A stretch of 64,000 nt of DNA from Paraspadella gotoi (lineage: Eukaryota; Animalia; Chaetognatha). The notes beneath the pieces are model-generated. The model saw only the letters and a list, made by a program, of their open reading frames with translations, ran no database searches and was not told the DNA's origin. Location: assembly GCA_051294375.1 (NCBI GenBank), contig CM119264.1, forward strand, positions 20,933,636 through 20,997,635, read 5' to 3'. Below, in pieces: positions 3,186 to 61,620 of the stretch. The translations under genes and the position numbers were made by a program. Within the stretch, counting starts at the first letter, position 1, and the number at the start of each line of letters is the position of its first letter.

Positions 3186-3424
3186 TATATGATTAAATAA
3201 AATTCGTTGTGAAACAAAAATCATTTTGCCCAAATTTTATAAATTATAAATTAAAATTAGTTTCTAAAAAAAAAAAAATTTATTGTTAAAAAATAAACTA
3301 ATGAGCAGACGCAGCCCCTGAAAAAAAAAAAAGAAATAAAAACCCGATGTTGCGATAGCAAAATGATAACATGCACGAATGCGATGCCTAATTTTACGAG
3401 TTCAATCCTATTTCAATTTTTTTT

Positions 3425-4722: not shown

Positions 4723-5344
4723 TTTTCTTTTTTGCAGGTAAGCCAAAGGCCGCATGTTCTTTTTTCTTTTTTTCAACTTTGTTGTATTTTTTAAAACAAA
4801 CAAACAAAGATAATAACTATAACAAAAACGGAGAGAACCACAAAAACAGTCATGAATTCTTTTTACTATTATTCTTAAAAGCATCTGACGAATCCTTGCT
4901 ATTAAAGTATTTTGATATGATTCAATTAAACAGTACCAAAATGGTTATGAGAAAAACAAAAAAACTGATTGAACTGTATCTCTCTCTGTCTCAATAGCTT
5001 TTTGTCATTGCTTCACTGTCTTCCTATCTTTCAAGATTAAGTTACAAGAAACCTTCATTGCAATAGTATTTTCATGTGCTTTTTAGTACTTTATATTATT
5101 TTTTTTATCCTATCTGCTGATCAAACTTTATATACTAGCTTTTAAATTCGATTTTATTATATTTATTTAAATTTATATATAAGATTAATAAGTTTTTATT
5201 AAATTAAAATATTACTGTGAAACGTTAATCTCATTTGCATATTGGAGTAACCCGATTTTTATTAAAAAAAAAATCGTTCTATCTCAAATCTCTTATTTTA
5301 GTACCAAGGTAATATTCCCAAGGTTTTGTAAAGATATTCCAACC

Positions 5345-10889: not shown

Positions 10890-11924
10890 TAGGGTAGTCT
10901 GGTGATTTTTTTATTTTTATTAAGAAAAATTTTTTTCACGTGCTGTCATGTAGCAGACATCGTTAGCTTTTGTATGATACCTCACATGATGCATTAAAAT
11001 TATTTTATGATAGCATTATGACATAAAATAAAAAAAATTGTGATAATTTTTTTCTGCCAGGCCTCGTAGACACAGCTAAAACTTAAAATTTTAAAATCTG
11101 ATAATACAGTCTTTTAGCCCTATGTCAGTAGTTTTTAAATCAGGGGAACAAAGTTTAAACTCCTAAATTATCATATTTAAATCATATGTTTTTTAAGGTT
11201 CCTACATGAATTTTTTTAATTTTTTTGTTTTTAAAAAAATGATAATCATTATCCTTAGTAATTATATAAACATTTGAGGAATAGAAAATTTTTGTTTATA
11301 TCAGAAACATAATTCAATATTTACTCTTTCAGAATCTATATTTATTTATTTTTTTAAATTTCAAAAGTTGTTATACTTTTCACTAAGATTCCGATCAAGA
11401 TTTTAAAAAAATCCTTTGAAACATTTTAAAAAAATTATATGGAAAAGATGCCCCATAATTATGGCTTTAATATGATACCAGTCTCATCGTTCTATCATTT
11501 TTGGTTCAAAAGATATCAAAGAAAATCATTTTTTTTATTACCAATTGATTTGGCCGAAGCTAAAAGTTTAGGTGGAACCAAACCAAACAACTTGCTTTAA
11601 AGGCATATCGCGTCTATGCGCGTCTCCATAGGTCAATTTTAAAAACAGATTTGGAATCCTCAAACGCATATTTACTAGTAACTTGACGACATCAAGTGAC
11701 AGAATGGTTCTATTATTATATCAAAATTAAAAATTAATTCTAATATATTTAGTTAATATCTATCGATTTCAATGAAAAAAAGGCACTAGGTATAATGCAT
11801 GTGATTGAACAATGTTTTCGCAATAATAATTTTATCAATTTTATGTATTTTTATTCAGTGAGTAAAATAACAACTTTTTTATTCGCTAATTTTTATCTTG
11901 GACGCTTAACGCCAGACTTCCCTA
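10890..11924. mobile_element. Nested TIR MITE
   Basis: Ends TAGGGTAGTCTGG / CCAGACTTCCCTA flanked by duplicated CTTTGTA. Confidence 0.65.
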
Positions 11925-11996
11925 CTTTGTAGTAGAAACTATTATATGATGAAACTTTTTAATCATTTTTCGCAGCTTTAACCTAAAAATATCATG

Positions 11997-12555
11997 TATG
12001 GTGGACTAAAATCCACCAACCGTTCATCAGCGGCCATTGGTGCCGGAGGCAAGTCATTCGCCTCCCAACCCAAAGGTCCGGGGTTCTAGCCCGGTGGCTG
12101 CCTAGCATTTAAGAGGGACGGGGCGCTTAACCCGCCTGTAACATGGTGTTACAGCCTGATCCGAAGCTCAGGGACTGCTTATATTGAATGGTTCTGTCAT
12201 TAACACATATCAATAATTACTGTCTCTTCATTGGTGAGCCCGACTTCCGAACACAACAGCAACAACAACCCTTTCAGGCGACATGCCTCAACCTGGCGAT
12301 GCACTTTCCGCCCACAATATATCAGGCGATAGGCCTCAACTTGATGACGAACTTTCCACCAACAACAACAATTCACTGAAGAGACGCAACAGACTTCTCC
12401 CTACGGGAGGGGGGATGTATGGTGGACTAAAATCTACCAACCGTTCATCAGCGGCCATTGGTGCCGGAGGCAAGTCATTCGCCTCCCAACCCAAAGGTCC
12501 GGGGTTCTAGCCCGGTGGCTGCCTAGCAGTTAAGAGGGACGGGGCGCTTAACCCG
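11997..12555 (+). mobile_element. Miniature LTR element (TRIM/retrozyme-like), family A; 5' LTR 11997-12230, 3' LTR 12418-12555 (truncated)
   Basis: Direct repeats; PBS TGGTGAGCCCGAC at 12232; PPT GGGAGGGGGGA at 12405-12415; twister-like motif at 12105-12178; homologous to 27837-28485. Confidence 0.85.
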
Positions 12556-12926
12556 GTGAATCCAAAACTGTTTTTAAAATTAAGAAAATATGATTTTATA
12601 AGGATATTACTATAAAGAAAATTCAATTAATGATAATGTTATGCATTTTTTTTGAAAAAGAGTTTAATTATTTTTTATTACATATACAAAGGCTGCAAAA
12701 AAATATTGTTTCATCGCTCAATCTTTTCATTACTCCACCCTACTGTACAATGTACAATGTACATGTACATAGACAATTAGTATTTTCGTAATTTGGTTTT
12801 ATAAAGGAGTAACGGTGTATATTACAATATTCAGTATGCTATATACTTTATTACAAAAATAGGTTCACTATTCTTTTCTAGATAATTCATGTATGTTACC
12901 TTGTAACACGAGAAATCTCTTCCCAG

Positions 12927-15900
12927 GTCAAAGACAAGTTGGATGGCTCGGTGAGAAAAGATTGGAGAGAGTTCCACGTCCCAAAGACGTCGATTGCAGC
13001 TTGGCTCTACATCGGGCGACGGGTGAGACAGTTCAGGGTTGAATGGTTGAGAAACCACAATGTTGAATATAACAATTCGTGGCAGTCTTTTTGACTCTTG
13101 AAAATAATCTAAAATTTAGCTTAGTTTAATGACACTGAACGGATAATGAAAATTATCAAAATCAACTAGTATTTTACGGTAGTAAAAGATCATTAAACAT
13201 TATGAAGCTTTATAAAAAAGCATAGTAGTAATGACAAACAAGTTCACTTATTTCACCCCCGATTCATTAATTCGACATTATCAACAGAACCGCATTCGAT
13301 TCAGCTGCTCCCCAGTAATCGTGGTGGATTCGGTGCCCGTGACACTGACGCGTGGCCCGGTGACCCTGCAGCAGCAGACGATGAGGTTCTGGTTACCGAA
13401 AGCCACGAAAGCTGTGGCCGACGATGCGGAGCAGTACGGGGAAGTTCTTGTCAGGGTCATGGTCGGAAAGATCGGGGGAGAGATGGAGCAAGTCATGGTG
13501 GTTAAACCCGGCAAAGTGAGTGACTCAAGAACTTAACCAAGCGAATCGATGCTTAACAACGATAGATACCGTGTTTTTAATCTCATTTAAATATTAAAAA
13601 TGTCCTGGTTTTTACCAAAAACCAAGTACCTAAGTAGGAATACTGTGAAAGACTAGTAATATGAGGTGAAAGTATTAGGATTAACGGAGTGTGCCTCTCT
13701 CAGAACGGCCCATGGAAAGTGGCTCCACGCCCACTGCTCGAAGATCCCATCCCGGCCTCGTCGTGGCAAACATCTCAAGCGCCATCATCATTGTCCTCCG
13801 CGTCGTCGTCGTTCGTCGAAGGCTTAGTCGCCATCAGTAGCGCCGGCGTGGAAATCGGCGTCGCCGCGATCCTCCAACGTCGTGAGTCGTCAATGGACAC
13901 TTCGGGCGGCGTCATTGGCGACGCCAATTTTCTTATTCACTTTCCAGAGGATACTGTGGACAGATCGGCGAAGGTGAGTTCTTGGATATAACAGAGTCAA
14001 ATTGATATAGATTTTTGGCTCGATTGATCTTTTCTATTTTCTTTCTTTGGCACCAGTTGGTGCTTCAAATTGAACGCGACGAGTTCGATCAGACTTCGAC
14101 GACTTTGCATCTGTCGTCGTCGCGTCCCCTCCGCGCTGAACATCTCGTCGTTGAGATGCCGGCTAAGGAAGGCGCGGAAGGAGGCGAAGTCATGTCCGTC
14201 TCCGTTCAAACAGGTGAAGGAAAACCATCTCACCTTATATTTCTCTAACGGTATGATTTATACCAGAGGAAAAGAAAAAAAATTATGAGAAGTTTTCATG
14301 TTCCTACTATAATTTTTTTTTTTTTTCAGATGGAATGAGACGCATTGAATGGCAATCTCTCATCACCGTCGACGTCACCGACGAGACTGACGTCGAAGAT
14401 CAACGAAAGAAAATTAAAGTTCAAAATCTTCCTCAAAATTGCACCGGATTTTCGTTGCTGTTGCAAGAAAACCCAAAAGCGTTGAAAGAAGCGGATATGG
14501 CAGAAGAAATTATGGAACCTGAGGGACCTGGTATGGATATATTTTCTTTTTTGTTGTTACACTCACGCATGATGTTAGACTTTTGCACGTTGTGTCTATT
14601 AGATGTATCAAAATAAGATTGACAGATCTTATTTTGCGTCCTTGTATGTTTATAAATATTTATGAAATTAGTCACTCGCACGTTTTGTATATTAAACGCC
14701 ATTTAACCGAATTCGAAACTCAAGACGCACGGCGACGAAATAAAAAAAAATTTACTCGAATTCCTCCATTTTTATTAACGCTGTCGCTAAATAAAAATTA
14801 CCGGCTCAAATTCGTCTGCAACACCTTTTCCGGCGACCACGAAAAATTATTAGTGAACAAGATTAACGAAGTAAAAGATTCGTCGCTGGATAAAGGTATC
14901 AAAGAGGAGAGACGCGAATCGACGCCTCGATCGCAGTCAATCGAAGACGATCGAGGGTTGATCGCGATCTATCATCCCGAAGTTGTTGACAGCGACGGTC
15001 CTCTGTCTGTCCTCTCGACGCCGACGAAGACTTCTCATCAGAGATCTCCGGATCTCTCAGAGTTCTCCCCTAATCCAACCATTGAGTGGCCGGACCGAGG
15101 CGTCCCCTCTCCCCACCCGGATGTCAAGACCCCCCCCAATCTAGTTCCACCGACGACAGTGTTCGACACTTTGAGTCATTTTTTCGGGTCTAAGTTGACG
15201 ACGCTGCGTCTTGACGATCGAAAGGATCGTCGATCGAAACCTCTTGTCTTTCGTCGTAAATCTGTGTCCAGGAAGATGCGAGCTCGACCCCCGCGTCGGA
15301 TAAATCGCGAGACGGAGACTAAGACGTTCTTGGTAAAGTCTTTTACCACTCAGACTTCTGCCGAACCAGGTGTCCTTGAGGCGTCCTCCGAATCGTCAAC
15401 CGTCGCTCCGCCCAACGACCTCGACAATGCGGCGACAGAAGCGACGCCTTTCGGCGCCGTTAATCGACGGGAAGGAGCGACGCCAGCTAACGACTTTTGG
15501 CATCCGGTGGAGGCGGGGTTTTTGGGTCACTTCTTTCGTATCAAGAGGAAAATGTACAAGCGGCAGAGGAGGACGAAGCTGCGGGAAGGGGGTCGGGACT
15601 ATGTGGATGCGATTCATGAAAAGAGGAGAGACAAAAGATGACTGCCAAGTCTATTTTACTGCATAGATGATAAAGACAACGTCAACAAATAGAAAGAATA
15701 AAAACTTTAACACGAAATGCAAAAAAACTCAATAAGATTTTTTTTTATGTATTGGCCCAATACTATTGGGGTTATTTTTATATTAATCTATCCATCATAT
15801 CAGGTAATTTTTACATACGTCTATTTCTTTGTGGTTATGTGTTTGTTAGTTGTGGTAACAAGATAATTTTGTTTATTAAGTTGTTATACATACAAAATCA

Positions 15901-17332
15901 ATAAACTAAAGTCAACAATAAAAATGAAAAGGACAAAATGGTTAAGAGAGAATAGTTTATGGAATATTGGATATTTGGGAAAATTTGAGATATTATGGCA
16001 ACAGCCGGGTTGCCTGTGATGCCCATTGAGATGGGGCATCTCACTGTTGGCTTTGGGGGCTTCCGACCCTCAGTGACTCTTGTCACTGGCGCGGTTACCC
16101 TAGGACGGTCTCACTTTGCCAACGCAGAGGGAAGTCATTAGGACTGTGGATGGAACACTAATCCTTGGATGGTGTGTTCCCCCTCTGAGCCAATGGATTT
16201 GGCTGAAGGATGGTGGACGTGAGGCAGTGTGAATATACCGCCACAATATTTTATTATTTGCATTGGTAATGATCAAAATCATAAATAGGAGACAAAAAAG
16301 GAAAAACAATAACATGGTTAATCAACACAGTAGAAAATATCAAGAATGGATACGAGTGGGGTCAGGCCTGGTCAAACACGACCGAACGTGTCGTCTTGGA
16401 AGTTGATTTTGATGTCGTTCTTTTTATCATTACTGTATACAGGAAAAGTTTCGTCGTCGTTGTCTTTTTATATTTCGCCATTGCGTTCATTTGAGTCATT
16501 TAAACCCCTGAATCGTTTCGCATAAAAAAGTCGAAGAAAAGAAAGTTTTCATTTATCTTTACCAAATAACGTAACCACCGGTCCACGCCCCCAATCAGTG
16601 CACCCCCTAACGAAGGCCTTCGTCTCGGTCGCACCCAACATCCCCGCGACGCACTGGCGCCTCCTGGCTGAGCGGATGCACGTAAAGAGCGTCGCCCACG
16701 ACGACGTGATGGCGCAGAAACCGGAAGTAAAGGCGAAGAGATTGATCGAATCTTGGATGAAATACAACCCCGGCACGACCGAGCGACAGGTGAGGTGTGG
16801 GGAAAACCAAAAAGGGACGGTTATGGGAACGGGGGACATGAGTGACGCCTGGCGTGTGAGGCATCTCCTAACAGCTGGCACTCAGGGTTTCAACCTGCAA
16901 TGACCACCCCATGTCACTGGCGTGTTTATGCCAACACCATCACACCTTAACCAGAGTGACCATGAGGGGATTGAACCCGGACCTCATGGTTGGCGAACGA
17001 GTACTTAGCAGTCCAAGCCAATGGGAAGAGCTGAGATTCACTAAGCTATGCGGGAGGCGAATTTAGGATTCGCCACACTCAACTATTTTTTTTTATGTCA
17101 AGAATACATTAAATAAACAAAAACCCATGATGCGTGTGTTAGTACATACCTTAACTTAACATAACTTATGTAAAATAGAAAACCCACGAGCGCCTTAACC
17201 GAACGATGCTCTTCCGATGTGACATTCGTTGTTCCAATCTTTGACTTTTTCCGTCACCTTCCGACTCGTTAATTTTCCAGCCCAACGGGTTTTTGAGTTG
17301 CGAGGTTATGCACCCCGCTCCGATTCGTTCCG

Positions 17333-18365: not shown

Positions 18366-18898
18366 TAGACTAGTCTAGTGCGTAGTGAAAGTTACATCCA
18401 GACATTCTAAATGTCGATTATGAACAACATACAATCAGTGAACATTAATTTGTAAAAAAAATGTATGTTCTTCAATTTTTGCAGTAGACTATATTTATAT
18501 ATAGTAATATCCTTATAAAAAAATTAAAATAGGCTTTTCTTAATTTTGATTGAAGATTTGAATTCCTCGTCAAAAGTTAATAAAAGAAAATATAAATCAT
18601 TTTTAAAAATTCTTTTAATAAGTGGGTTAAAAATTAAAAAAACTATATTTAATATATAAAATATAAATTTTCAGCTCAAAATATAGGTTTTTTATATTTG
18701 ATCAACTTAATGAAAGAATTTTTAAAAAAGAGTTATATTTCTTTATATCAACTTTTCATGACGAATCGAATTGTGCAAAAAAAAACTTAAAAAAAATTTT
18801 TTTGAAATTTTAACATTTATTGGATTAGTACTAGTAAAAATATGGCCTACTGCGTAAATTGTAAAATTTATTTTAAATTTTTTTTATACTACGCTTTA
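18366..18898 (+). mobile_element. hAT MITE (same family as 37971-38374 and 61009-61620)
   Basis: 8-bp TSD GTACGCAC; termini and body shared with the other copies. Confidence 0.85.
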
Positions 18899-19620: not shown

Positions 19621-19836
19621 TGAGGAGACAGTAATAATTGTTATATGTTAGTGACAGAACCGTTAAATATAAGCAGTCCCTGAACTTCGGATCAGGCTGT
19701 AACACCGTGTTACAGGCGGGTTAAGCGCCCCGTCCCTCTTAACTGCTAGGCGGCCACCGGGCTAGAACCCCGGACCTTTGGGTTGGGAGGCACCAATGGC
19801 CGCTGATGAACGGTTGGTGGATTTTAGTCCACCATA
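19621..19836 (-). mobile_element. Solo LTR family A with twister-like motif (19673-19746)
   Basis: Reverse complement of the family A LTR; 4-bp TSD ACGG at 19617-19620 and 19837-19840. Confidence 0.85.
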
Positions 19837-20743: not shown

Positions 20744-21395
20744 TACATTTTTCCCCTTTTTTTCCTTTGTTATTTTCAACCCTTTAAACTTTTTTCTATC
20801 CTAATCTCTTATCAATTTTTATTCCCCTTTCAGTATTTTTTTAACTTACTTTCTCCTAATTGTTTTCGTTTTTCCTTTCAGCTAATGTAATACATTTACA
20901 TCAAAGAATCTTTTGAAATATAATATGCATCTGCATATATTTTCTTGCAAATAAAATTCTTACATGCAATAATATTCTATTTTGCTAACAAAAAAAAAAT
21001 AATCTTTCTAATTTTATTTTTTCTCACTTTTTCTTTCCCTTTTTAAAATGAACAAAGAAGTAAATAAAATAAAACCGAATAAATTTAAAAAAACTAAAAT
21101 AAAAAATATTTATTATAAAACATTTAAAAAATGAACAATAGAAGGAATTGAATTGAATTGAAAAGGCATTAAGGCTAACTAAAACTATCTTTCAATGATG
21201 ATATATTTATTAATTAATAACTCTTTCATTCAACCATTCAATTAATAAATTGATATTCATAATTAAGAGAAAACAAGGTTTATTTGTTTACAAACAACGG
21301 GTTTTTATTCCAAAAAACTGATATGTTTCGACTCTAGTTTTTCCAAGTCTACATCAGCGCGTAAGAGTAGAAACATGTCCGTTTTTTTTTAATAA

Positions 21396-22654
21396 CAAGT
21401 TTGAGCAAACAATGTCGGATCTGCCTACGAAAATTAATTAATTAATTAATCGATTAATTAATCAATTAATTAATTATTTTAATAATTAATTATAAATTTA
21501 TATACAGCTTATCATCATCGATGTCCTTAAAATAAAGTAAATGTGACTTATATTTTTTCCATTTAAAATCATTTCCACTGGCACAACTCCGTCAAAACTT
21601 TATATCTAGCTTCTTCACAAACTTTCCTTCCTGCTCACAAAATTTCATCTCAATCTATTATGGGTTAAAATAAGTAAAAAGAGTCAAGTAAATGTGACTC
21701 ATATTTTTTTTATTTAAACTCATTTCCATTCGTACCGAAACTTTATATCAAGCTTCGTCACACATTTTCCTACCCACACACAAAATTTGAACTCAATCTA
21801 TCCATCCAATTATGATTAATTAGAGTATTTATTGGTGAAAATAAGTAAAAAGATTTTAGTAAATGCGACTTATGTTTTTTCCATTTAAACTCATATCCAC
21901 TCACACTATTCCGTCAAAACTTTATATCCAGCTTCATCACATATGTTCCTACCCATACACAAAATTTCACTCCGATCCAATCAGCCAATCACGAGTTATT
22001 GGGGCTTTTTGCTAAGGTGGAACGGATGGACGGATTGATTGACTGATTAATTAATTAGTGATTAATTAAATGACTAATTGATTAATTAACTGATTAATTA
22101 TTTGATTTATTAATACATCCTGCATATACATTTAATATAAAAGGAAAAAAAATCATAATCAATTAGTTAAACAGGTTTTTTGTTTTTTTTTATTTAAACT
22201 CATTTCCACTCAAACGATTCCACCGAAACTTGGTTTCCTGTTCAATCACACACTTTCCTACAAAATTCCAGGTCAATCGCCCCATCCACTCATGAGCAAT
22301 TGGTGTTTAAATAGTGAATTATATTTTTTTGTTTTTTCCATTTAAACTCATTTCCACTCGGACGATTCCATAGAAACTTTATATCCAGCTCAATCACACA
22401 ATTCCCTACCCATACACAAAATTTCACTCAAATCCATCCATCCATCCAATCACGAGTAATTGGTGTTTTTTGCTAAGGTGTGATGGACGGACGGACGGAC
22501 GGACGGACAGACGCACATCATTTTTTTGCATAATTTATCATAATTAGATGTTCTGACATGATATAAGTTAGTGCCCGACAATATTGAGGGGGCGGACCGA
22601 CGGACCAACAAATGGAATTATAGAGTCGGGATCTGCTGATAAGCAGATCCGACT
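21396..22654 (-). mobile_element. HINE family A copy
   Basis: Reverse complement of 3425-4722; absent from the paralogous site at ~45267; no TSD. Confidence 0.85.
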
Positions 22655-23046
22655 AAAAACCCGTTGTTTGTAAACAAATAAAATTTGCTTTCACTTATCT
22701 ATAAACGCAACAAAAAGAAAGTCTTAACACAATATTCAATGGTCATGGATTATAAAAGACTAACAAGAGAAAACATGCTTTCAAGAAACTAACAACTATA
22801 AAAATAATGAGGAAGAGAAATAGAAAAAGAAAAAGCAAAAGCGAAAGAAAGAAAGAGAAAGAGAAAACAAAATATACAGAATTAGAATTACATTGTGCTT
22901 TTTATTTTATTATCTTTTTTCATATTTTTATTATGCTATGAGCCAAAAGAAAGATTTATTATAATGCTTTATTTCATTAGCTGATGGGTAGATTCAAGAT
23001 AGATTTTTCAAACCAATTTTTTTAATTTATCAACTATAATGTGTAC

Positions 23047-23668
23047 TAGGGTGAAGTGAAAGTTTGGAATCAAAATTTAGCAGTTATATCTTGAAAAACT
23101 TCATATTAGTGAATACTAATCTGTAATTATTTTTCTTTTTTATAAATATAGTAGCCCAGTCAGCTTATTTTGTATATAGTACTACCCTTATATAAAGTCA
23201 AATTTTCAAAATAGTTTTTTTTTAATTCTGAGAACAGATTCAGATCCTCGTTAAAAGTTAATAAAAGAAAGTATAAATCTTTTTCAAAAATTATGTCATT
23301 AAGTAGGTTAAAATTATAAAAAACTATATTTTTAAGCTGGAAATTTAAAATCGGCGTCTTAAATATAGTTTTTTACATTTTTGACTAACTTAATGAAAGA
23401 ATTTTTAAAAAAGTATTGTACTTTCTTATAATAACTTTTTGCAAGGAATCCAAATTCGATCTTAAAATTTAAAAATTTTGTATTTTGAAATTTTAGCCTA
23501 TTATATACTTATTACTATATATAAATATAGCTCACTGGTGCCCACTAATGTATAAAATTTAAAAATAAATTTACCACAATATTTTTATTGGTTTTTATGT
23601 TCATGTTTTATATGCTAAAATTTTCAATTTTTAATTTTCTAAAATTTTATCATTTTCACATCACTCTA
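23047..23668. mobile_element. hAT MITE
   Basis: TIRs TAGGGTGAAGTGAAA / TTTCACATCACTCTA; TSD ATGTGTAC, single-copy at the empty site ~45669. Confidence 0.9.
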
Positions 23669-23923: not shown

Positions 23924-24791
23924 ATAGAAAAATTGTTTGTTAATTTTACAAATTATTTGTGCAAAGGAAAAGTAAGAGAGAGAGAGAGAGAGAGAGAAAA
24001 TTTAAAGTTAAATTATAAAATTAACCGATTTTAACGGTTAACCGTTAAAAAGTTAGTTTTAACGGTTAAGCGAAGTTCCTTAAAAATTAACGGCTAACTG
24101 AACCCTAAGTAGTATCAGACAAAATGCAAATACATGGAAAAACCAAAATCATGCGAGAAATTGAATCAATTTGACGGAGAGCATTGAAGCATTCTCGTGA
24201 AGAGTATTGAAAAAATTGGAGGAGAAGATTGAAACAATCTGATCCATAAAAATTGATCAATTTTTAAAAAAAGAAAATATGTTCGAATTTCGAATGTTCG
24301 AATTTCCTTGATAAATAAAACTCGCTCATCAGTTAACCTCTTTTTATTTATTGTTTTAGAAAGTTTTTTTCTTTCGCCTACTAAATTTTCGTGTCATCAA
24401 TCCCAAAAATTAACGTCGTCATTCTGGGTCGCCACTCCCGATTCTATAAATCGGCACCAATGTCGAAACTCTGATGCGGATGAGGAAAAGAAAACAACGT
24501 TCCGGGTCGACGCTTCTGGTTTTTTTTCTCCTTGACGTCGAATGACGGACGAGTTTTATTTTTCACTCAGATGGCGCGAAATGAAATCGCGGTCGCCCAC
24601 CCCCGCGTCATAACTGACGTTGAGTGGCGCGGGGTGGATGAGCGGCGTGGCCATATTGGGAGTAGAGGTCAAAAAACAGTGAAGCGTACCGATTATATAC
24701 AGCGAAAACCAATCCGTGCATACAATTTTATTACCATCCCAATAGGTAAATTTGTATTCTAAGTATTTCTTCACAAAGATATTAAAAAAAA

Positions 24792-25750
24792 CAAGTTTGA
24801 GCAAACAGTGTCGGATCTGCCTACAATAATTAAGCGGTAATCAGCTAATCAGATGATAAATGACAATATTTTTAAAAAAAAATTTTAACTCGCATCATTT
24901 TTTCAACTCACATCATTTTTTCAACTTGCATCATTTTTTCCACTCACATCATTTTTTCAACTCACATCATTTTTTCAACTCACATCATTATTTCAATTCG
25001 CTTCATTTTTTCTACTTGCATCATTTTTTTTTAACTCTGCATTCTTTTTTTACTTGCATTCATTTTTTTTAACTTGCATCTTTTATTTTTTTCACTTGCA
25101 TAATTTTTTCAACTTGCTTAATTTTTTGAATTGCATCATTTTTTACATTAATTAAATAATTAATTAATTAAACATTTATTAGTAATTATAAATATATAAA
25201 GATTCAATAAATGTGACTTATGTTTTCTGCATTTAAACTCATTTCCACTGCAGGATTCCGTCAAAACTTTGTATCTAGCTTCTTACACACTTCCTACCCG
25301 CACACAAAATTTCATTCTCAATCTATTAATTCAATTATGATTAATTCGAGCAATTATGGGTTAAAATAAGTAAAAAGATTCAAGTAAATGTGACGCATAT
25401 TTTTTTTATTTAAACTCATTTCCACTCGCACGTTTCCACCAAAACTTTATCTCAAGCTTCGTCACACCACTTTCCTACTCACACACCAAAATTTCAACTC
25501 AATATATCCATCCAATTATTGATTATTAGAGTATTATTGGTTAAAATAAGTAAAAATATTTTAGTAAATGCGACTTATGTTTTTTCCATTTAAACTCATT
25601 TGCACTCGCACGATTCCATCGAATCTTTTGTCCAGCTTTATCACACACTTTCCTACCCACACATAAATTTTATTCCAATCCACCACCAATCACGAGTTAT
25701 TGGAGCTTTTTCTAAGGTGAAACAGACGGATACGGACAGACGGACGGACC
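24792..25750 (-). mobile_element. HINE family A copy, 5'-truncated, with ~19-bp AACTCACATCATTTTTTC tandem array
   Basis: 3' hairpin and subTIR, ~130-bp repeats, remnant GACG microsatellite. Confidence 0.8.
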
Positions 25751-26570: not shown

Positions 26571-27836
26571 CTTTTAAATATTTATTAATATATAACAAAT
26601 GACAAAAATTTTTTTTAAAAAAATTTATTTTAAGAACGGATTCTTATAGAGCTTGAAAAAGTTAAATGAAAGTAGTACTACATTTTTTTAAAATATTTGA
26701 CAAGAAATTTGGTTAAAATAAAAAAAAAACGTTAAAAAATCATCATCATCATCATCATTGTGCTGAATTTTATAGTTTTTTAAAATTTTACCAATAAAAC
26801 AAAAAAATTTTAAAAATTTGTATTAATAACCTTTATCTAACTTTTAAAGCTCTATCAGAATTTATCAAAAAAAATTGACAAATTCAAAAAAAAATTTTAA
26901 CTTTTATATAGTAATAAATTATCTTTAAAGGCTTCCGTGCGCTTATTATGAAATATTTTTTTAAAATATATTTTTATTTTCATATTCTCTAACAGTCACT
27001 TTACCATTATTTATTTTGAGAGAACTTCTAGTTTTCAACCTGTTCCGGCCTAATACATACCGGGAAAGTCTATAGGGCACCTTTATGTCATGAATATAAT
27101 TTTAAAGTTATATTTTTTCTTTATTCTACTTTTTAATTGTTTCTTTTTTGAATATTTTTTATCTTTTTTTTATACAATGAAGGTCATCAGTTGGGAACCT
27201 ATACCCTTCATGGATTTGGCTCTTTAATCCCAATATCCAGGTATAGGCGAGCCATCACCAATGGTGATCCTTCATTGTTGCTTATCTTATATTTTAAATG
27301 TATATCTTGAATGTTTATCTGAAACAGACCAAAGCCCTGGCTTCACAGCATCATTAATTTTAGAGAAATTTTATTAAGGTTTTGTAATAATTTGTAATTT
27401 GTAAATAAATAAAATAAGTTAAATAATTAGTTTAATAATAAGTTAATAATTAAGGGTATGTTAATGTAAAGTTAACATTAAGTTAATTGTAAAGTTAAAA
27501 AGTTTAAAAAATAAATTAAATCAGAGAGAGAAGAGTCCCGTTTCAGAGCAAAATCTGGAATCTGGAATCCGCAAAAGAGAGAAAGAGACGAACGTCGATA
27601 TCTCCTATATAAAAGAGCTTCTGAGTTACAGTCGTCTGGACTTTAAAGCTCCTCCCTTATCCACCGAGATCCTGTCCTCAGGATACGCTCCTGACGACGC
27701 CGGACTCGCGTCATACAAAATCTTAACCTCCGTCATCTTGTATTCTTCATTTACTGAGTCGCGCTACAAATAATCTCAAGTTGACTTTGAATGCTCCATC
27801 TCTGCCACGCGGGACTTCATCCGGTATAGTGAAATG

Positions 27837-28485
27837 TATGGTGGACTAAAATCCACCAACCGTTCATCAGTGGCCATTGGTGCCGGAGGCAAGTCATTCG
27901 CCTCCCAACCCAAAGGTCCGGGGTTCTAGCCCGGTGGTCGTCTGGCAGTTAAGAGAGACAGGGCGCTTAACCCGCCTGTAACATGGTGTTACAGCCTGAT
28001 CCGAAGCTCAGGGACTGCTAAATTGAACGGTTCTGTCATTAACACTTATCAATAATTACTGTCTCTTCATTGGTGAGCCCGACTTCCGAACACAACAGCA
28101 ACAACAACACTTTCAGGCGACATGCCTGAACCTGGCGATGCACTTTCCGCCCACAACACATCAGGCGACATGCCTCAACTTGGTGACGAACTTTCCACCA
28201 ACAACAATTCACTGAAGAGACGCAACAGACTTCCCCTATGGGAGGGGGGATGTATGGTGGACTAAAATCCACCAACCGTTCATCAGCAGCCATTGGTGCG
28301 GAGGCAAGTCATTCGACTCCCAACCCAAAGGTCCTTGGTTCTAGCCCGGTGGTCGTCTGGTAGTTAAGAGGGACGGGGTGCTTAACCCGCCTGTAACATG
28401 GTGTTACAGCCTGATCCGAAGCTCAGGGACTGCTTATATTGAACGGTTCTGTCTTTATCACATAACAATAATTACTGTCTCTTCA
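27837..28485 (+). mobile_element. Complete miniature LTR element (TRIM/retrozyme-like), family A: LTR 27837-28069, internal 28070-28252, LTR 28253-28485
   Basis: 233-bp direct repeats ending in TCA; PBS TGGTGAGCCCGAC (28071); PPT at 28240-28250; 4-bp TSD AATG; no coding capacity. Confidence 0.9.
28360..28433 (+). ncRNA. Twister ribozyme, type P5 permutation (predicted cleavage 28383|28384); mutated twin at 27945-28018
   Basis: P5 GTAGT/ACTGC; P2 CCC/G(A)GG; conserved GA and U|AA; T2 GC/GC; P3 CTGTAACA/TGTTACAG; P4 CTGA/TCAG with loop TCCG-AAGC; T1 TCCG/CGGG. Confidence 0.8.
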
Positions 28486-31271: not shown

Positions 31272-32284
31272 ATGAGCGCAAATTCAGTCGGCAATAAAGA
31301 TTCGTCCACCCGTCTCATTTTAAGATGCCAACTCTTTCTTATCTTGTTTTGCACCCTCTTCACTGTTTGCATACATGCAGGACCAGGTATGTGCATTTTA
31401 CTTAATGATGTTTAGTTGAATTTATAAAAATACATTATACTGCAGAGGGCGAAAACCATCACTTCAAATCGGAGGTCATGGCGAACCCTCAACTAAAACT
31501 TCTTGTCAATAATCTCCTACAACAACGCTCACGACAAGCGGACAATTCGGACATTGACGAGGACGATAATCCAAAGAGCGAATCAGATCATGGGTCGCCC
31601 GAAGTCGTCGACGAAGCATTCCAGAACTCTAGTGAAGAAACAGATCTCACCCCGACAGCCAACTACAAGATGATAAACGCCAAAAAGATGATGAAAAAAT
31701 CTATTTCACCGGCGTCGAGCGGGGATTTCGACAAAAGACCGGATCCTTATGGATTTGCTGGCGGTCTGGGAAAGAGGGCGGATCTGTATGGGTTTGCTGG
31801 TGGACTTGGTAAGAGACCTGATTCCTATGGGTTTGCCGGAGGATTGGGGAAAAGGGCAGATCCTTATGGCTTTGAAGGGAGTCTTGGTAAAAGACCAGAT
31901 CCTTCCGGTTTTTCTGGAGGACTCGGAAAACGGCCAGATCCTTATGGATTTTCGGCAGGACTGGGGAAACGGCCAGATCCATATGGATTCGCTGGAGGAC
32001 TCGGGAAAAGGCCTGATCCATATGGGTTTGCTGGAGGACTGGGAAAAAGGCCTGATCCTTATGGGTTTGCTGGAGGACTAGGGAAAAGGCCTGATCCTTA
32101 TGGGTTTGCTGGAGGACTAGGGAAAAGGCCTGATCCTTATGGGTTTGCTGGAGGACTAGGGAAAAGGCCTGATCCTTATGGGTTTGCTGGTGGTTTGGGG
32201 AAACGAGCTGATCCCTACGCTTTTGCCGGAGGACTTGGAAAAAGAGTCGATCCTTATGGATTCTCAGGAGGATTAGGTAAATGA
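31272..32284 (+). CDS. Buccalin/allatostatin-A-type neuropeptide precursor, 317 aa; exons 31272-31386 and 31446-32284
   Basis: Hydrophobic signal segment LFLILFCTLFTVCIHA, acidic spacer, then 14 GK(R)-terminated 10-mers (PDPYGFAGGL x7 and variants), similar to Aplysia buccalin-type -FxGGL-amide peptides. Confidence 0.9.
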
Positions 32285-34496: not shown

Positions 34497-36819
34497 GAAG
34501 ACGGAGTTTTTTTTAATTCCTTAGAGGGAAACATTGATAAATAATGAATATTAAAAAATTCAGAATGAAATTGTAATATAGTTATAATAATATAAACGCA
34601 ACAGTTGTACCTTTGATCCCGTAGGCGGTTCATCTTCTTCTTTAACAATTTTCTTCATCGACTTTGAAGCCAGACTCTCGTGCAAAGAGAGAGAATTCGG
34701 CAAATACCTGTTAACAAAAATCAAATGTTAAAGTTAGACAAAATGAACGTTTATATAGTAGGAAGAGACAAATCTCGGGTCAATCAGGAAGAAAAAAAAA
34801 TATATATATAATTATATATATATATTAAGATTTATCTTTGGGAAACAATAATAACACAAAATTAGCAGGATTGTTTTTTTTTTCAGTAAAGCAAAATGTT
34901 TTTAAACAAGTTTGAGCAAACAATGTCGGATCTGCTAATCGTTAATCAGCTAATAAGATGATAAATCACAATATTTAAAAAAAAAAATTTTAACTCGCAT
35001 CATTTTTTCAACTTGCATCATTTTTTTCACTTACATCATTTTTTCAACTCACATCATTTTTTCAATTTGTATCATTTTTACAATTTGCATCATTTTTCAA
35101 CTTGCATCATTTTTTTAACTTGCATCATTTTTTTTAACTTGCATCATTTTTTTTAACTTGCATAATATTTTTAACGCACATAATTTTTTTAAATTGCATC
35201 ATTTTTTCACATTAATTAATTCATTAATTAATTGAAACATTTATTAGTAATCATAAATAATAAAGATTCAAGTAAATGTGACATATGTTTTTTTCCATAT
35301 AAACTCATTTCCACTGGCTTGATTCCGTCAAAACTATATCTTGCTTCTTCACACACTTTCCTACCCATACACAAAATTTCATCTCAATCTATTAATTCAA
35401 TTATGATTAATTCGAGTAATTATGGGTTAAAATAAGTAAAAAGATTCAAGTAAATGTGACTCATATTTTTTTCATTTAAACCCATTTCCACTCGCACGTT
35501 TCCGTCGAAATTTTATATCAAGCTTCGTCACACACTTTCCTACCCACACACAAAATTTCAACTCAATCTATCCTTCCAATTATGATTAATTAGAGTAATT
35601 ATTGGTTAAAATAAGTAAAAAGATTTTAGTAAATGTGACTTATGTTTTTTCCATTTAAACTCAATTCCACTTGCACGATTCCATCAAAACTTTATATCCA
35701 GCTTCATGACACACTTTCCTACCCACACATAAAATTTCATTCTAATCCAACCACCCAATCACGAGTTAATGGAGTTTTTTGCTAAGGTGGGACGGACGGA
35801 CGACGGACGGACGGACGGACGGACGGACGGACGGACGGACATCATTTTTTAAAAATAATTTTTCATAATTCGATGTTCTGACATGATGTAAGTGAATGCC
35901 CGACAAGATTGAGGGGGCGGTCAGACGGACCGACAAAGTGAATTATAGAGTCGGGATCTGCTTTCAGCAGATCCGACTAAAAAGGTCATGGTCAAATATC
36001 ATTACCACTTTTCACCCGATTTGTCTCTACTTAAATTAACTTCTTCGCTACTTCCTACAATAACTGATACTCTACCAAAAAGCGGAACTTTCAGATTAAC
36101 CTGCATCCCCTCTTTAGCGCATTCCTCACGGTTCCCAATATCTTTTTCAGTCCTTCGTTTTCGAGTTTAAGGAGATCGTTTTCTCTTTTAACCGCTTCTA
36201 ACGATTTTGCTGAAATAAACAAAATAATTTTTAATTATTGTCACAGGCTAATTAGGTTTTGAAAATCCAGGCTTTTTACCATACTGATACTCCGATTGAA
36301 TTCCTGCCTCATTTCGTTTCTTATGTATATCTTACTTTTTATTTTTTATTTTCAGCCTAGACTGTTTTAGTGTACATACTTAGCCAAGAAAAACATTAGA
36401 AAAGCCCAGTTGATATCGAAATTCCTGCCCATCCTCTTATCCCTCCCAGGTCGCACCCTTGTTTTCCTTCTCCAATGCCTTCGTCGCCACGTTCGCCATC
36501 GTCGCCGCGAGACTTCCGCTTTGCTCCCTCCGTTTCTGGACCATCTGCTTGAAGCGGCTCTCTCGAACCGGGGACTCTTTCTGCGAGGAACGAAATAATA
36601 AAAATAATAAATAAATAAAAATAATAATAAAAAACGAAATAATAAAAACCATGGCAAGCTGTGGTTCGACTTTCAGCAAACAATATCTAAAACTATGTAA
36701 CTATAGATTAGTGATAAAGCGAAATATGGTTGTTTTAACAAAGATTCGACTTTATGACTCCTTGCCTTTGATTTTTGCTTGACCGTCTGAACGGACGGTA
36801 ATGTTTTTCTTGACGACAT
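32923..36819 (-). CDS. Coiled-coil protein with C-terminal death domain; exons include 36580-36457, 36209-36101, 34707-34611, 34519-34329, 34213-34074, 33974-33934, 33847-33787, 33698-33471, 33352-33265, 33049-32923 (5' exons tentative)
   Basis: Ten phase-compatible GT-AG exons; heptads LEAVKRENDLLKLENEGLK and LEELETRVTQL; death-fold pattern MWELVGAQLGV..AAHLVLIEW...ATVDLFIRLL. Confidence 0.7.
34907..35978 (-). mobile_element. HINE family A copy (intronic)
   Basis: Both termini, GACG microsatellite, and ~130-bp and ~19-bp internal arrays present. Confidence 0.85.
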
Positions 36820-37420: not shown

Positions 37421-37566
37421 TTAAACAAAGTTTGGAAATATTTTCGTCAACGATTTTTCATTTAATAATATACGGACATGTTCGACTCTTCATTTCTAAC
37501 GCTGATGAAGACTCGAAATGAAGAAATGAAAAATCGTTGACGAAAATATTTCCAAACTTTGTTTAA
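37421..37566. repeat. Inverted repeat enclosing a rearranged hammerhead (Penelope-type relic)
   Basis: ~43-bp arms; CTGATGAAGACTC on + and GAGTCGAACATGTCCG on -. Confidence 0.6.
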
Positions 37567-39001: not shown

Positions 39002-49510
<10,509 letters not shown>

Positions 49511-53293: not shown

Positions 53294-54604
53294 CTCTCTC
53301 TCGGTCATCGTGATTTGTGGAGAAAATGGGAAAAAAATTTTTCCGAGTTCAAAATCCCCCACAAACGAGGACTATAACGAACTCTTTTCTTTCTTTTTTT
53401 CTTTTTCATTTGATTTTTTTTTCATTTGTTTCCATTGATTCAATTTTCATATTTAGTAAAACGTTTTTAAACTAACGTTGACTTTTTATGTAATCAAGCT
53501 AATTTAATTAAATTGATTTCATCAGGCGACGACGGAATCGAATCAGGCCCTTGTCCTGAAATGCAGCACTTGACGGAATTTGACGCCCGGTCTTTCGCAG
53601 GCACCTGGCACATCCTTTCATTCAAGCCCAATATGTTTGAGTCAAACAGTCTCAAATGCCGGTAACTGATAAGGCACTGATGCCTATTACTAGTAGCCTT
53701 CATTAGGACTTGCTCAAAGTAGCAGTTATTGTACTGCGATATGCGATACAATTTTACTTTTTTTATCAGGAGAATCGAAGTTGCGATGAAGGAATCGGTC
53801 AAAGGCAATGTCGTCGCCATCACATCTTTCGACACGCAGGAAGGAGAAGAGACGAAGACGACGAGAGAAGCGAAGTGGGAGCCGAGCCAAGGGGGACTCT
53901 TGAAAACCTCTCAGGTGGGCGGGGGGCGGGTACCCAGGAACTCGTTGCAAGGGGGTTAGATGAATTAAAGAAACATTCAAGATAACGAATTTGGGATTAA
54001 AATCCACCAATCGTTCATCAGCGGCCATTGGTGCCGTAGGCAAGTCATTCGCCTCCCAACCCAAAGGTCCGGGGTTCTAGCCCGGTGGCCGCCTTGCAGT
54101 TAAGAAGGATGGGGCGCTTAACCCGGCTGTAACACGGTGTTACAGCCTGATCCGAAGCTCAGGGACTGCTTATATTGAACGGTTCTGTCACTAACACATA
54201 ACAATTATTACTGTCTCTTCCCTATGTTTATTTTCGACCGCAAGAAGACAGAAAAAAAATTGTGAAATTAATAATTAAGTTTTAATAGATTGTATTGTCA
54301 AATAATAATATTTAGTATAGTTGATATTGAGTGTAGCAAAAAACTGAGCATTGAAAATCAAAATTCCCACATCCACCAGGAAATCTTTGGCTTCTCTCTC
54401 GACGTACCCCTCAAGATCCTGTGGACGGACTATTCGAAATCGGGCGTCGGGTGGTGCTGTGTTGAGTCCTTCGGGTCTCACGCCGACGCCGCGTGGATCT
54501 GGAGTCGGACACCGACGCTTGACGACGAGACGATGGGGAAGATGAGGAAGATATTGGAGGATCGAGGGGTGCACGCTGAAGACATGGTGGACGGGGAGTG
54601 TTGA
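52949..54604 (+). CDS. Apolipoprotein D-like lipocalin; exons 52949-53021, 53526-53661, 53770-53914, 54380-54604
   Basis: Signal peptide, GPCP..FDARSFAGTWH (GxW motif), TDY motif, AWIWSRTPTL, terminal Cys; splice phases compatible. Confidence 0.88.
53993..54220 (+). mobile_element. Family A LTR copy (5' end degraded) in lipocalin intron
   Basis: Near-identical to the 27837-28069 body; perfect GCGGCCA/TGGCCGC acceptor-like stem. Confidence 0.8.
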
Positions 54605-58595: not shown

Positions 58596-60302
58596 AGTCG
58601 ACTCTATAATTCACTTTGTCGGGCACTAACTTATATCATGTCAGAACATCGAATTATGATAAATTATGCAAAAAAAATGATGTCCGTCCGTCCGTCTGTC
58701 TGTCCGTCCGACCGTCCGTCCGTCCCACCTTAGCAAAAAATACCCATTACTCGTGATTGGAAGGATGGATTTGAATAAAATTTTGTGTGTGGGTAGGGAA
58801 GTGTGTGATTGAGCTGGATATGAAGTTTCGATGGAATCGTCAGAGTGGAAATGAGTTTAAATGGAAAAAACAAAAAAATATATTTCACTTTTTGAACACC
58901 AATTGCTCATGAGTGAATGCGGCGATTGACCTGGAATTTTGTATGTGGGTAGGAAAGTGTGTGATTGAACAGGAAATCAAGTTTCGATGGAATCGTTTGA
59001 GTGGAAATGAGTTTAAATGGAAAAAAACAAAAAACCTGTTTCACAAATTGATTATGCTTCTTTTTCTTTTTATATTATATTATATATATATATTATTATA
59101 TGTATTAATAAATTAAATAATTAATCAGTTAATTAATCAATTAGTCAATTAATTAATCAATAATTAATTAATCAGTCAATCAATCCGTCCATCCGTCCTA
59201 CCTTAGCCAAAAGCTCCAATAACTCGTGATTACCTGGTTGGATTGGAATGAAATTTTGTGTGTGGGTAGGAAAGTGTGCGATAAAGCTGGATATAAAGTT
59301 TCGATGGAATCGTGTGAGTGGAAATAAGTTTAAATGGAAAAAACATAAGTCGCATTTACTAAAATATTTTTACTTATTCTAACCAATAAATACTCTAAAT
59401 AATCATAATTGGATGGATAGATTGAGTACAAATTTTGTGTGTGGGTAGGAAAGTGTGTGATGAAGCTTGATATAAAGTTTCGTTACGAGTGGAAATGAGT
59501 TTAAATGAAAAAAATATGAGTCACATTTATTTGAATCTTTTTACTTATTTTAACCCATAATAGATTGAGATGAAATTTTGTGAGCGGGTAGGAAAGTGTG
59601 TGAAGAAGCTAGATATAAAGTTTTTACGGAATTGTACCAGTGGAAATGAGTTTAAATGGAAAAAACATAAGTCACATTTACTTGAATCTTTATTATTTAT
59701 GATTACTAATAAATGTTTTAAAAATAATGTGAAAAAATGATTCAATTTAAAAAAAATTATGCAAGTTGAAAAAATGATGCAAGGTGAAAAAATCTTAAAA
59801 GCATAAGGATCGTCGCAATTGCAGAGAGAGAAAGAGAGAGAGAGATAAAAACGAAATAAAAACATGATGTTGCGATAGCAAAATGATAACATGCACAAAT
59901 GCCATGCTTAAATTTATGAGTTCAATCCTAATTCACTTTTTTTTTTTAATAAAAACGCAGAGAGAGAGAGAGAGCGGCAGCAGCAGAGGCAGCCAGAAAA
60001 AAATTAAGAAATCAAAAGGCAGCAGTAGAAGCAGCAGGAGAAAAGAGCAGAGCCAGCTGCAGACTCGTTTTTTTTCCTAGCACTAAAAATGGCGCAAGTT
60101 AAAAAAATGATGCAAGTTGAAAAAATGATGCGAATTGTAAAAATTATGCAAATTGAAAAAATGATGTGAATTGAAAAAATGATGTGAGTGGAAAAAATGA
60201 TGCGAGTTGAAAAAATGATGTGAGTTAAAAAAAATTTTAATTTTAATCTTCTAAAACCGCTTAATTATTGTAGGCAGATCCGACATTGTTTGCTCAAACT
60301 TG
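58596..60302 (+). mobile_element. HINE family A copy with nested family B fragment (~59790-60080)
   Basis: Homologous to 3425-4722; 5' hairpin collapsed to AGTCGACT; 3' end intact. Confidence 0.8.
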
Positions 60303-60524: not shown

Positions 60525-60761
60525 TGTGGAAGACGATGCCTCGAGCAGTTTACCGTCCGTTGCACACAAGGTTCCGAACTTCGGATCGGGCTGTAGTCCG
60601 ACACTACAGGTGGGTTAGACCACCCGTCCCGCTTTTACTTGTGTGAATCAGCATGGCCCGAACCCGAGTCCTTTGGGTTGGGAGGAGCTCGTGCTACCCC
60701 CGGCGCCATAGGTGCTGCGGATTCTCGGACGAGTAGCAGGGTATGAAATACTACCGCTACA
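60525..60761 (-). mobile_element. Solo LTR family B with tRNA-like head and twister ribozyme (60563-60645)
   Basis: TG...CA termini, 4-bp TSD ATTC, 237 bp; same fold as family A with compensatory changes. Confidence 0.85.
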
Positions 60762-61008
60762 ATTCAATCATTTTAAAACATGGGAGAAAAGATTTTTTTC
60801 CCTTTGCGCGCGTCGGTATAGTGAATGCACTAAATGTCGAAATGTCTAAAAGAATAAATTTCGGATTCCAATCAAATTTAATTGACATAATTTCTCTGTT
60901 TTTTAAGTAGTCAAGCAAACAGACTACAATTGCTAATAAACATTTCTTCAATCTGAATGATTTTATTACTCTTTTGTAAAACACGCTGGGCAATTCAACA
61001 GTCAACAC

Positions 61009-61620
61009 TAGAGCGTAGTGAAAGTTACGTACCGAAATTCTAAAAGTCAATAATGAACAACATACCATCAATGAACATTAATTTGTAAAGAAAATTAATT
61101 TTATATTTTTTAATTTTCGCAGTAGGCTATATTTATATTATTTATATTATTTATATATTTATATATATTTATAAAATAAAAAAAATTTAAATAGGCTTTT
61201 CTTAATTTTGATTGCAGATTTGAATTCCTTGTCAAAAGTTGATAAAAGAAAATATAAATCATTTTTAAAATTTCTTTCATTAAGTGGGTTAAAAATTAAA
61301 AAACTATATTTAATATATAAAAAGTTAATTTTCAGCTTAAAATATAGCTTTTTCTAATTTTTTAATTTTATAAAAAGAGTTATATTTCTTTTTATCAACT
61401 TTTTATGACAAATCCAAATCTGCAAAAAAATCTTAGAAAAAACTGTTTTGAAATTTTAACATTTATTGGATTAGTACTAGTATAAATATAGTCTACTGCA
61501 TAAATTGTAAAATTTATTATAAATTTTTTTATTACATAAATGTTCATTAGTATAATGTTGTTCGTTCCTCACTTTTAAAATTTTAATTAAAGTTAAATTT
61601 AGAAATTTTACTACGACTTA
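61009..61620 (+). mobile_element. hAT MITE, longest copy
   Basis: TSD GTCAACAC; termini TAGAGCGTAGTGAAA / TTTACTACGACTTA. Confidence 0.9.

Follow-up and report, generated by a model that had tools for sequence, protein, structure and literature searches.

Host genes and LTR copies around the focal segment

The window (the whole 64-kb stretch of DNA that was analysed) is AT-rich animal DNA with introns and carries tropomyosin, lipocalin and neuropeptide genes. Comparisons of the tropomyosin and neuropeptide proteins point to an animal of invertebrate type. The 72 bases at the centre of this study (54021-54092) lie inside a repeat of 236 nt, of which five further copies were found within the window. 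This repeat is a solo LTR of family A (53986..54221, + strand); about 8 nt of its 5' end are eroded, its terminal CA reads CC, and it lacks a TSD. As read from the sequence, the LTR would sit in sense orientation in a GT..AG intron (53915..54379, + strand) of the lipocalin gene. The next exon (54383-54601) matched the Pfam family Lipocalin with an E value of 1.5e-7.

Among the other genes, a divergent tropomyosin exon at 633-809 (- strand) is 83-97% identical to many environmental proteins among the 120 matches listed. A neuropeptide precursor at 31478-32284 carries about 15 copies of a DPYGFAGGL-GKR-like unit and gave Atlas matches of only 0.76-0.84; we take it to resemble the buccalin/allatostatin-A precursors. 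A large repeat family with subrepeats of 150-180 nt, 84-90% alike and present in both orientations, occupies 3420-4724, 21394-22659, 24789-25749, 34904-35983 and 58616-59792, and looks like a non-autonomous DNA transposon or a Helitron-type repeat. MITE-like, self-palindromic repeats are located at 2575-2972, 18375-18884, 23127-23568, 61008-61583, 45147-45300 and 37421-37566.

The focal LTR is 91-94% identical over 227 nt to the LTRs at 11995, 27835 and 28251. The best-preserved family A LTR (11995..12230, + strand) has TG..CA ends, a 5' hairpin, a tRNA-like segment (12030-12101) and a twister-like fold (12105-12178) with both pseudoknots, T1 and T2, intact. It is followed by an internal part of 185 nt (12231..12415, + strand), which starts with a tRNA-Trp-type PBS, ends with a PPT and is too short to hold gag or pol. 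The second LTR of this element (12416..12555, + strand) is identical to the first at 138 of 140 positions and breaks off inside the twister. A complete LTR-internal-LTR element of 651 bp was found at 27835..28485 (+ strand); it has no TSD, its cut-to-cut unit measures 415 nt, and its two LTRs are identical at 220 of 234 positions. The full anatomy is present in these two family A elements (11995-12555 and 27835-28485), with an internal part of 181-185 nt. At its start, the PBS agrees at 13 of 14 bases with the Trp PBS of Gypsy-32_NVi and Helenus-2_SyJa in Figure S2 of Kojima.

Further copies are solo LTRs. One belongs to family A (19621..19836, - strand) and has lost 18 nt through the A box and D arm; it shows a 4-bp TSD if 2 nt were lost at its 5' end. 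Two belong to family B: the copy at 48180..48430 (+ strand; TSD CTCC) combines a strong A box (48233) with a twister of swapped T1 and lacks a clear B box, and the other lies at 15994..16245 (- strand; TSD ATAT). The family C LTR (16822..17077, - strand) has no TSD, an A box at 17020, a strong B box at 16977 and a decayed twister loop L4. In the family D LTR (60525..60761, - strand; TSD GAAT) an A box at 60708 and a weak B box precede a twister with compensatory changes in T2, P3 and P4. An nhmmer search of the window returned no fifth LTR family. Inspection of the flanks of seven insertions gave a 4-bp TSD for four of them, clean in the two B copies and the D copy and conditional on the 2-nt loss in the A copy, and none for the focal copy, the family C LTR and the full 651-bp element. 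Families A and D have 15 nt of the anticodon/variable region in common. A hairpin of 7-8 bp with differing sequence lies just inside the TG end of all four LTR families (11999-12018, 48181-48203, 17077-17056 and 60760-60736), where the first 45 nt fold at -9 to -15 kcal/mol. The order LTR-PBS-internal-PPT-LTR, with 4-bp TSDs at sister copies, is that of a TRIM, and the element is non-coding.

RNA records were compared with 11500-14290, the region of the 11995 element, as unstranded contigs. Run X1 behaves as spliced RNA of the host organism and gave 1235 records in this region, mostly on the LTR; runs X2 and X3 gave no records. A spliced host gene adjoining the 11995 element (12910-14213, + strand) is matched by an X1 contig of 1934 nt with no differences and three GT..AG joints. 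The X1 contigs hold many LTR copies with differing flanks, with 27 and 35 loose ends at the LTR edges. Varied flanks are what passive co-transcription would give; neither a transcription start nor a strand nor a circle can be read from the contigs, and the X1 data are neutral on transcription of the element itself.

The tRNA-shaped segment and its boxes

The proposal of the earlier note, a tRNA-derived Pol III promoter in the LTR upstream of a ribozyme, holds as far as the layout is concerned: the segment 54021..54092 (+ strand) is tRNA-shaped, lies inside the LTR and precedes a twister-like fold. The 7-bp acceptor-like stem and the letters of both boxes are present as described there, and their occurrence exceeds chance, if modestly. 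GCGGCCA at 54021-27 pairs at 7 of 7 positions with TGGCCGC at 54086-92, the D and anticodon stems are broken, the variable loop reads AGGTC, and the T arm has a loop of 6 nt. The A-box-like element TGGTGCCGTAGG (54029..54040, + strand) is degenerate and scored 2.6 bits. The B-box-like element GGTTCTAGCCC (54073..54083, + strand) starts 44 nt after the start of the A box and scored 8.9 bits. Between the boxes lies TCGCCTCCCA (54049-58).

Of 52 distinct tRNAs from phage T5 and E. coli, 41 were used to build a covariance model, the long-arm types and one doubtful call being omitted, and this model was run over the whole 64 kb with filters off. Its top match in the window was exactly 54021-54092 with 12.7 bits, weak at an E value of 0.26 for a model trained on prokaryote and phage tRNAs. 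The sister copies at 12030 and 12451 ranked second and third (10.8 bits, E 0.98), and the other three of the six matches were short AT-rich hairpins. The focal score is below that of every training tRNA. In the alignment to the model the acceptor stem, the GG of the D loop, the variable loop and the T arm are in register; one base is added ahead of the A box, the T loop is one base short, and the D and anticodon stems are broken. The LTRs of families B, C and D gave no whole-cloverleaf match to the model. ARAGORN found no tRNA in the window, and the intact cloverleaf of a functional tRNA gene is absent at the focal segment. Rfam scans, at gathering thresholds on the 64 kb and at E values up to 10 on five LTR stretches, returned no tRNA and no ribozyme at gathering level.

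A weight matrix for the A and B boxes, on which real tRNAs score 14.9-35.1 bits (prokaryote and phage training), gave 11.5 bits for family A at a spacing of 44, rank 5 of 128,000 positions, with a shuffle P of 0.010-0.013. The earlier note had claimed equivalent boxes for families B, C and D. This was borne out for family C (13.7 bits, spacing 43, P 0.003) and weakly for family D (7.2 bits, spacing 44, P 0.051); in family B a strong A box (12.9 bits) is not followed by a B box at the spacing of a tRNA (P 0.07-0.12). Pooled by Fisher's method, the box scores reach p ~1e-4 over four families, of which A and D are related, and 2e-4 over A, C and B alone. At A14 and R57 the family A boxes do not follow the motifs of the tRNA type, and the B box of family D lacks A58. 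The box B motif GGTTC is present in A, C and D and missing in B, and the box A motif TRGCY is present in B and C and missing in A and D.

Boxes no better conserved than the rest of the LTR had been named beforehand as grounds for giving up the promoter. The boxes proved to be better conserved than their surroundings, both across families and within family A. In a comparison of the families that was itself anchored on the A box, identity was 35/138 upstream, 45/72 within the A box and 36/108 after it. With the TGG anchor removed, the A box still showed 27/54 identical positions (p 3e-4). For families A, C and D identity in the B box was 24/33 vs 13/45 downstream. Among the six family A copies, 4 of 311 cells differ in the region from A to B box, as against 45 of 982 in the remainder (Fisher p 0.006), a count in which gaps were not scored, though an 18-nt deletion removes part of the A box and D arm in one copy, and in which the copies are not independent. 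The B box itself (54073..54083) shows no difference in 66 cells of these six copies. None of the 12 LTR variants listed for RNA run X1 (40 of 68 rows) falls between the boxes. The retention of G-U wobbles in the acceptor stem of sister copies was discounted as a sign of selection, since C-to-T decay yields G-U pairs for free.

The conserved letters at the A box might have other sources. If they formed a second PBS, the tRNA look would partly be coincidence: CA-TTGGTGCCG could pass for an LTR end with a tRNA-His PBS behind it, the focal TGGTGCCGT equals the start of the His PBS in Kojima's Figure S2, and TGGCGCC of family D equals the start of the Lys PBS listed there. The ninth base, however, matches in the focal copy only, and families B and C fit no PBS of that list. 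In addition, the TSDs flank whole LTRs of 237-252 nt, and variable loop, B box and acceptor stem follow at tRNA spacing, so that we regard a second PBS as very improbable. A Pol II promoter is equally hard to credit; its reverse CCAAT box would be the ATTGG overlapping the A box. Families A, B and C have this ATTGG (LTR position 40-56), family D does not, and neither TATA[AT]A nor AATAAA was found in any of the seven LTR copies scanned. Moreover, CATTGGC also opens the A boxes of several wasp LTRs of Helenus, the TRIMs with a tRNA-derived region in the LTR that are known from fungi, six animal phyla and a plant (Helenus/TRIMp3; Kojima 2024, PMC10886601).

The earlier note had likened part of the segment to the anticodon arm of tRNA-Gly(CCC). 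An origin from such a tRNA is not established; the comparisons were made with prokaryote and viral loci, not with eukaryote tRNAs. The 'Gly' motif lay within a tRNA at none of 120 viral loci. Of 99 prokaryote loci with a motif from the 3' half of the segment, 39 had it inside tRNA-Met and none inside another isotype. A Met origin was nevertheless rejected: the test is circular, the motif having been drawn from the segment itself, and confined to prokaryotes, and it therefore removes only the uniqueness of Gly. The nine 'Gly' bases, CGCCTCCCA, also occur in 7 of 14 fish Helenus LTR heads, as judged by eye from the published part consulted. A blastn search of the segment against phage records gave 37 matches at chance level, none annotated as tRNA among the 20 listed. 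A metagenome scan with the motif shared by A and D plus the B box hit two loci, neither of them an element. One of the two (L002, 901-960) holds the 3' half of a tRNA alone with the anticodon- and variable-loop letters of A and D, and is probably an attachment-site remnant.

From these data we are confident that the segment derives from a tRNA, whichever its isotype. For family A this is well supported by the rank in the model search and by the box scores; for C and D it is the boxes that carry the argument, as families B, C and D gave no cloverleaf match.

The twister-like fold and the proposed route of replication

Immediately downstream of the segment, at 54096..54169 (+ strand), the LTR can be folded as a P5-permuted twister with a predicted cut at 54119/54120. 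All four families parse as P5, P2', GA, T1', P1, UAA, P2, T2, P3 and P4 with L4. Since MAFFT misaligned the twister cores, the pairs were parsed by script; the general features of the fold follow PMC8501958 and the Rfam consensus. T1 reads CCG/CGG in families A and D, with the two strands swapped (CGG/CCG) in B. T2 reads GC/GC except in D, where it is AC/GT. P3 has 7-8 bp and P4 has 4 bp, and pairing is kept across families with changed sequence. The distance from the A box to the predicted cut is 90, 90, 91, 95, 92 and 91 nt over the four families. In place of the P1 hairpin there is a self-complementary hexamer (54113..54118, + strand), which cannot form a hairpin and would form a self-duplex of -8.3 kcal/mol. 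P1 is self-complementary in A (12122-12127), in B (48316-48323) and, with wobbles, in C (16929-16936), but not in D (60618-60623).

Defects are also present. T2 and P2 are broken in the focal copy, L4 is decayed in C, and P2 of family A has only 2 of 3 pairs. In Rfam scans the twister-P1 model matched family B only, partially and below gathering (E 0.039), the P5 twister model had no match to the LTRs, and no hammerhead was found in the window or the LTR stretches. A scan of viral sequences with the twister core gave one locus of unrelated context. Taken together, the fold is very likely a twister. The focal copy itself, within a host intron, has probably lost the ability to cut and is a relic.

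The earlier note had further stated that the family A element has no sense-strand T4 run despite an AT-rich genome. The run is indeed absent (0 in 651 bp), but the absence is not significant, the element having a GC content of 51%. Shuffling gave P 0.10-0.21 for the whole element and 0.22-0.50 for one LTR plus the internal part, and 3-9% of GC-matched windows are also free of T4. The family B copy at 48180 contains one T4 run. T4 depletion was dropped as evidence for Pol III on these values (P 0.10-0.50).

We consider it fairly probable that, in active members of the families, the boxes would function as a Pol III promoter. With somewhat more reserve we propose, as the best reading, a Pol III-driven LTR retrozyme: the decayed tRNA-shaped module would be the internal Pol III promoter of a non-coding TRIM and feed a predicted twister that would cut in both LTRs. 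TFIIIC would bind the A and B boxes and recruit Pol III, which would initiate in the 5' LTR, close to the acceptor-like 5' end, and read through the T4-free element to the first T run in the flanking DNA. Such a run lies 7-43 nt past seven of the eight LTR ends examined. The two twisters would then release a unit of 415-421 nt with a 5'-OH and a cyclic phosphate, and this unit would be circularised. tRNA-Trp would prime a borrowed Gypsy-type reverse transcriptase, which by running beyond one unit length could rebuild both LTRs. This circle route we favour by a small degree only. The predicted circle is only 53% paired.

The statement that the twister would cut off the tRNA head applies to the copy in the 5' LTR only, because the RNA from cut to cut still holds the copy in the 3' LTR; in the focal LTR the twister is damaged. 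The 5' head would be discarded and the unit would end with the promoter copy of the 3' LTR, so that daughter elements would inherit the promoter. As P1 is a palindrome without a hairpin in three of the four families, cutting may need two paired ribozymes. Such pairing would favour two-LTR transcripts over solo LTRs.

The boxes could also be the fossil of an ancestral SINE or tRNA insertion that is now silent, with the twisters alone freeing elements from Pol II read-through and the region being kept as RNA structure. The degeneracy of the boxes and the loss of the B box in family B agree with this, as do the many RNA contigs that run into varied flanks. Furthermore, the segment folds at z -2.4, best as a long stem of 11 bp and not as a cloverleaf, and read-through by Pol I, II or III has been proposed as a route for retrozymes (PMC7761336). 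Against a silent fossil, the boxes are more conserved than the neighbouring sequence across and within families, the spacing of 43-44 is kept in A, C and D, and B keeps a strong A box at the same distance from the cut. We consider the fossil unlikely for these reasons and retain the Pol III promoter as the preferred reading. The unit of about 420 nt is small enough for in vitro assays of each of promoter, cleavage, dimer dependence and circularisation.

Comparison with known systems

TRIMs with a tRNA-type promoter in the LTR have already been published as Helenus (PMC10886601); their Pol III activity is unvalidated according to that paper, and the animal members have a 4-bp TSD of the Helenus/Gypsy type. 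As far as that source describes them, our elements share with Helenus a non-coding TRIM of less than about 1-1.3 kb with two LTRs, PBS, PPT and, in animals, a 4-bp TSD, as well as the presence of several families per genome. The LTR segment recalls the non-functional, A- and B-box-bearing tRNA of Helenus and fits its box motifs only in part. The Trp PBS is that of Helenus-2_SyJa. Unlike Helenus as described, a twister-like ribozyme follows the tRNA segment, and the boxes are more degenerate: the A box of family A departs from the TRGCY of the Helenus box A (TRGCY, YGG), and a whole tRNA shape is seen in family A only (E 0.26).

The available main text of PMC10886601 mentions no ribozyme outside a reference. 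A search of its supplement with four twister L4 8-mers gave three matches, all in internal portions and none in an LTR. In DataS1, two gall-wasp sequences, Helenus-2_SyJa-LTR and Helenus-2_SyUm-LTR, show by eye a type III hammerhead downstream of a tRNA head, together with a Trp PBS and no T4 in the LTR. This hammerhead, on which the main text is silent as far as available, has by eye stems I-III, the conserved core and a 9-nt loop-loop complement, and is located after the B box. In the wasp LTRs consulted there, T4 follows the B box in 39 of 41, and the other two are those with the hammerhead (by eye). The bivalve block has T4 in 17 of 31 LTRs. That a ribozyme replaces the terminator was rejected as a general rule for Helenus: by eye and for the sequences consulted, wasps fit, vertebrates have neither T4 (0 of 18) nor a ribozyme, and bivalves fit partly.

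The vertebrate sequences bear on another reading, in which the elements are ordinary Helenus: the Pol III promoter is active, replication goes through a linear RNA bearing a short terminal repeat, and the twister is a passenger or does no more than trim the 3' end. With T4 after the B box in 0 of 18 LTRs and no ribozyme seen by eye, they suggest that an element lacking a terminator can do without a ribozyme. The X1 contigs give no evidence of circles, which contigs cannot show. On the other hand, a twister with compensatory changes is kept in four families, and cuts in both LTRs would leave no terminal repeat, which retrozymes solve by circularising (PMC4918200). We therefore judge the linear route improbable and keep to the promoter that feeds two cutting LTRs.

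The earlier note had taken the plant Cassandra TRIMs, with a 5S-based Pol III promoter inside the LTR (PMC7215508), for the closest parallel; the Helenus TRIMs are closer. Common to both Cassandra and our elements is a Pol III promoter, predicted here, inside a TRIM LTR. Cassandra differs in having a type 1 promoter from 5S instead of a type 2 promoter from a tRNA, its own terminators and, in the source as consulted, no reported ribozyme, and in being found in plants. Rfam scans of the LTRs gave no match to 5S rRNA.

The SINE-like hammerhead repeats of Schistosoma have a Pol III promoter followed by a self-cleaving ribozyme (as reviewed in PMC6765202), and there too the released RNA keeps the promoter at its 3' end. 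They are, however, non-LTR tandem repeats with a hammerhead and, as reviewed, have no PBS or PPT. With the type-P5 twisters and the twister variants of Perere-3 (PMC8501958) our fold shares the UAA cut site, GA, L4 and the pseudoknots T1 and T2. Unlike these it lies inside an LTR and not at a non-LTR 5' end, has a palindromic P1 and scores below the Rfam gathering threshold.

In the open-access literature we found no report of a tRNA promoter combined with a ribozyme in an animal LTR element. The added value is this coupling: if true, the element could switch itself on and trim its own RNA. The proposed reading explains how a Pol III LTR element that has no terminator could set the ends of its RNA and nevertheless hand its promoter down to new copies. 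A further prediction is that there are overlooked ribozymes in the Helenus families already published. Tentatively, and as something we rate below an even chance, Pol III-driven LTR retrozymes may be a recurring class in animals, with a tRNA promoter and a ribozyme, both captured, in place of the normal LTR start, the R region and the terminator. Such a class would have had two or more origins, one with the twister described here and one with the type III hammerhead of gall-wasp Helenus-2; tRNA-Trp is the predicted primer in both. The palindromic P1 would restrict cutting by the twister to paired ribozymes, so that transcripts with two LTRs would be processed and the many solo LTRs in host introns would be harmless.

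A 2020 review describes metazoan retrozymes as lacking LTR, PBS and PPT, does not commit itself on their polymerase and hints at insect elements, as yet unpublished, that have type III hammerheads (PMC7761336, as far as consulted); our reading would name a candidate polymerase. Plant LTR retrozymes have a ribozyme in each LTR and an abundant circular unit RNA, for which reverse transcription has been proposed (Cervera 2016, PMC4918200), and in one plant retrozyme LTR transcription starts upstream of the ribozyme (Lezzhov 2022, PMC9695139). Going by these sources, our elements share with them PBS, PPT, a 4-bp TSD and the lack of an ORF; a ribozyme in each LTR, a unit RNA between two cuts and a start upstream of the ribozyme are predicted here. 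They differ in having a twister-like motif instead of a type III hammerhead, an animal host, a tRNA-type promoter, a Trp instead of a Met primer and a shorter unit, of which the circular form is a prediction. With promoter and cleavage as predicted, the element resembles an LTR retrozyme but lacks the hammerhead that defines the class. LTR retrozymes, so far plant elements with hammerheads, would gain an animal member based on a twister.
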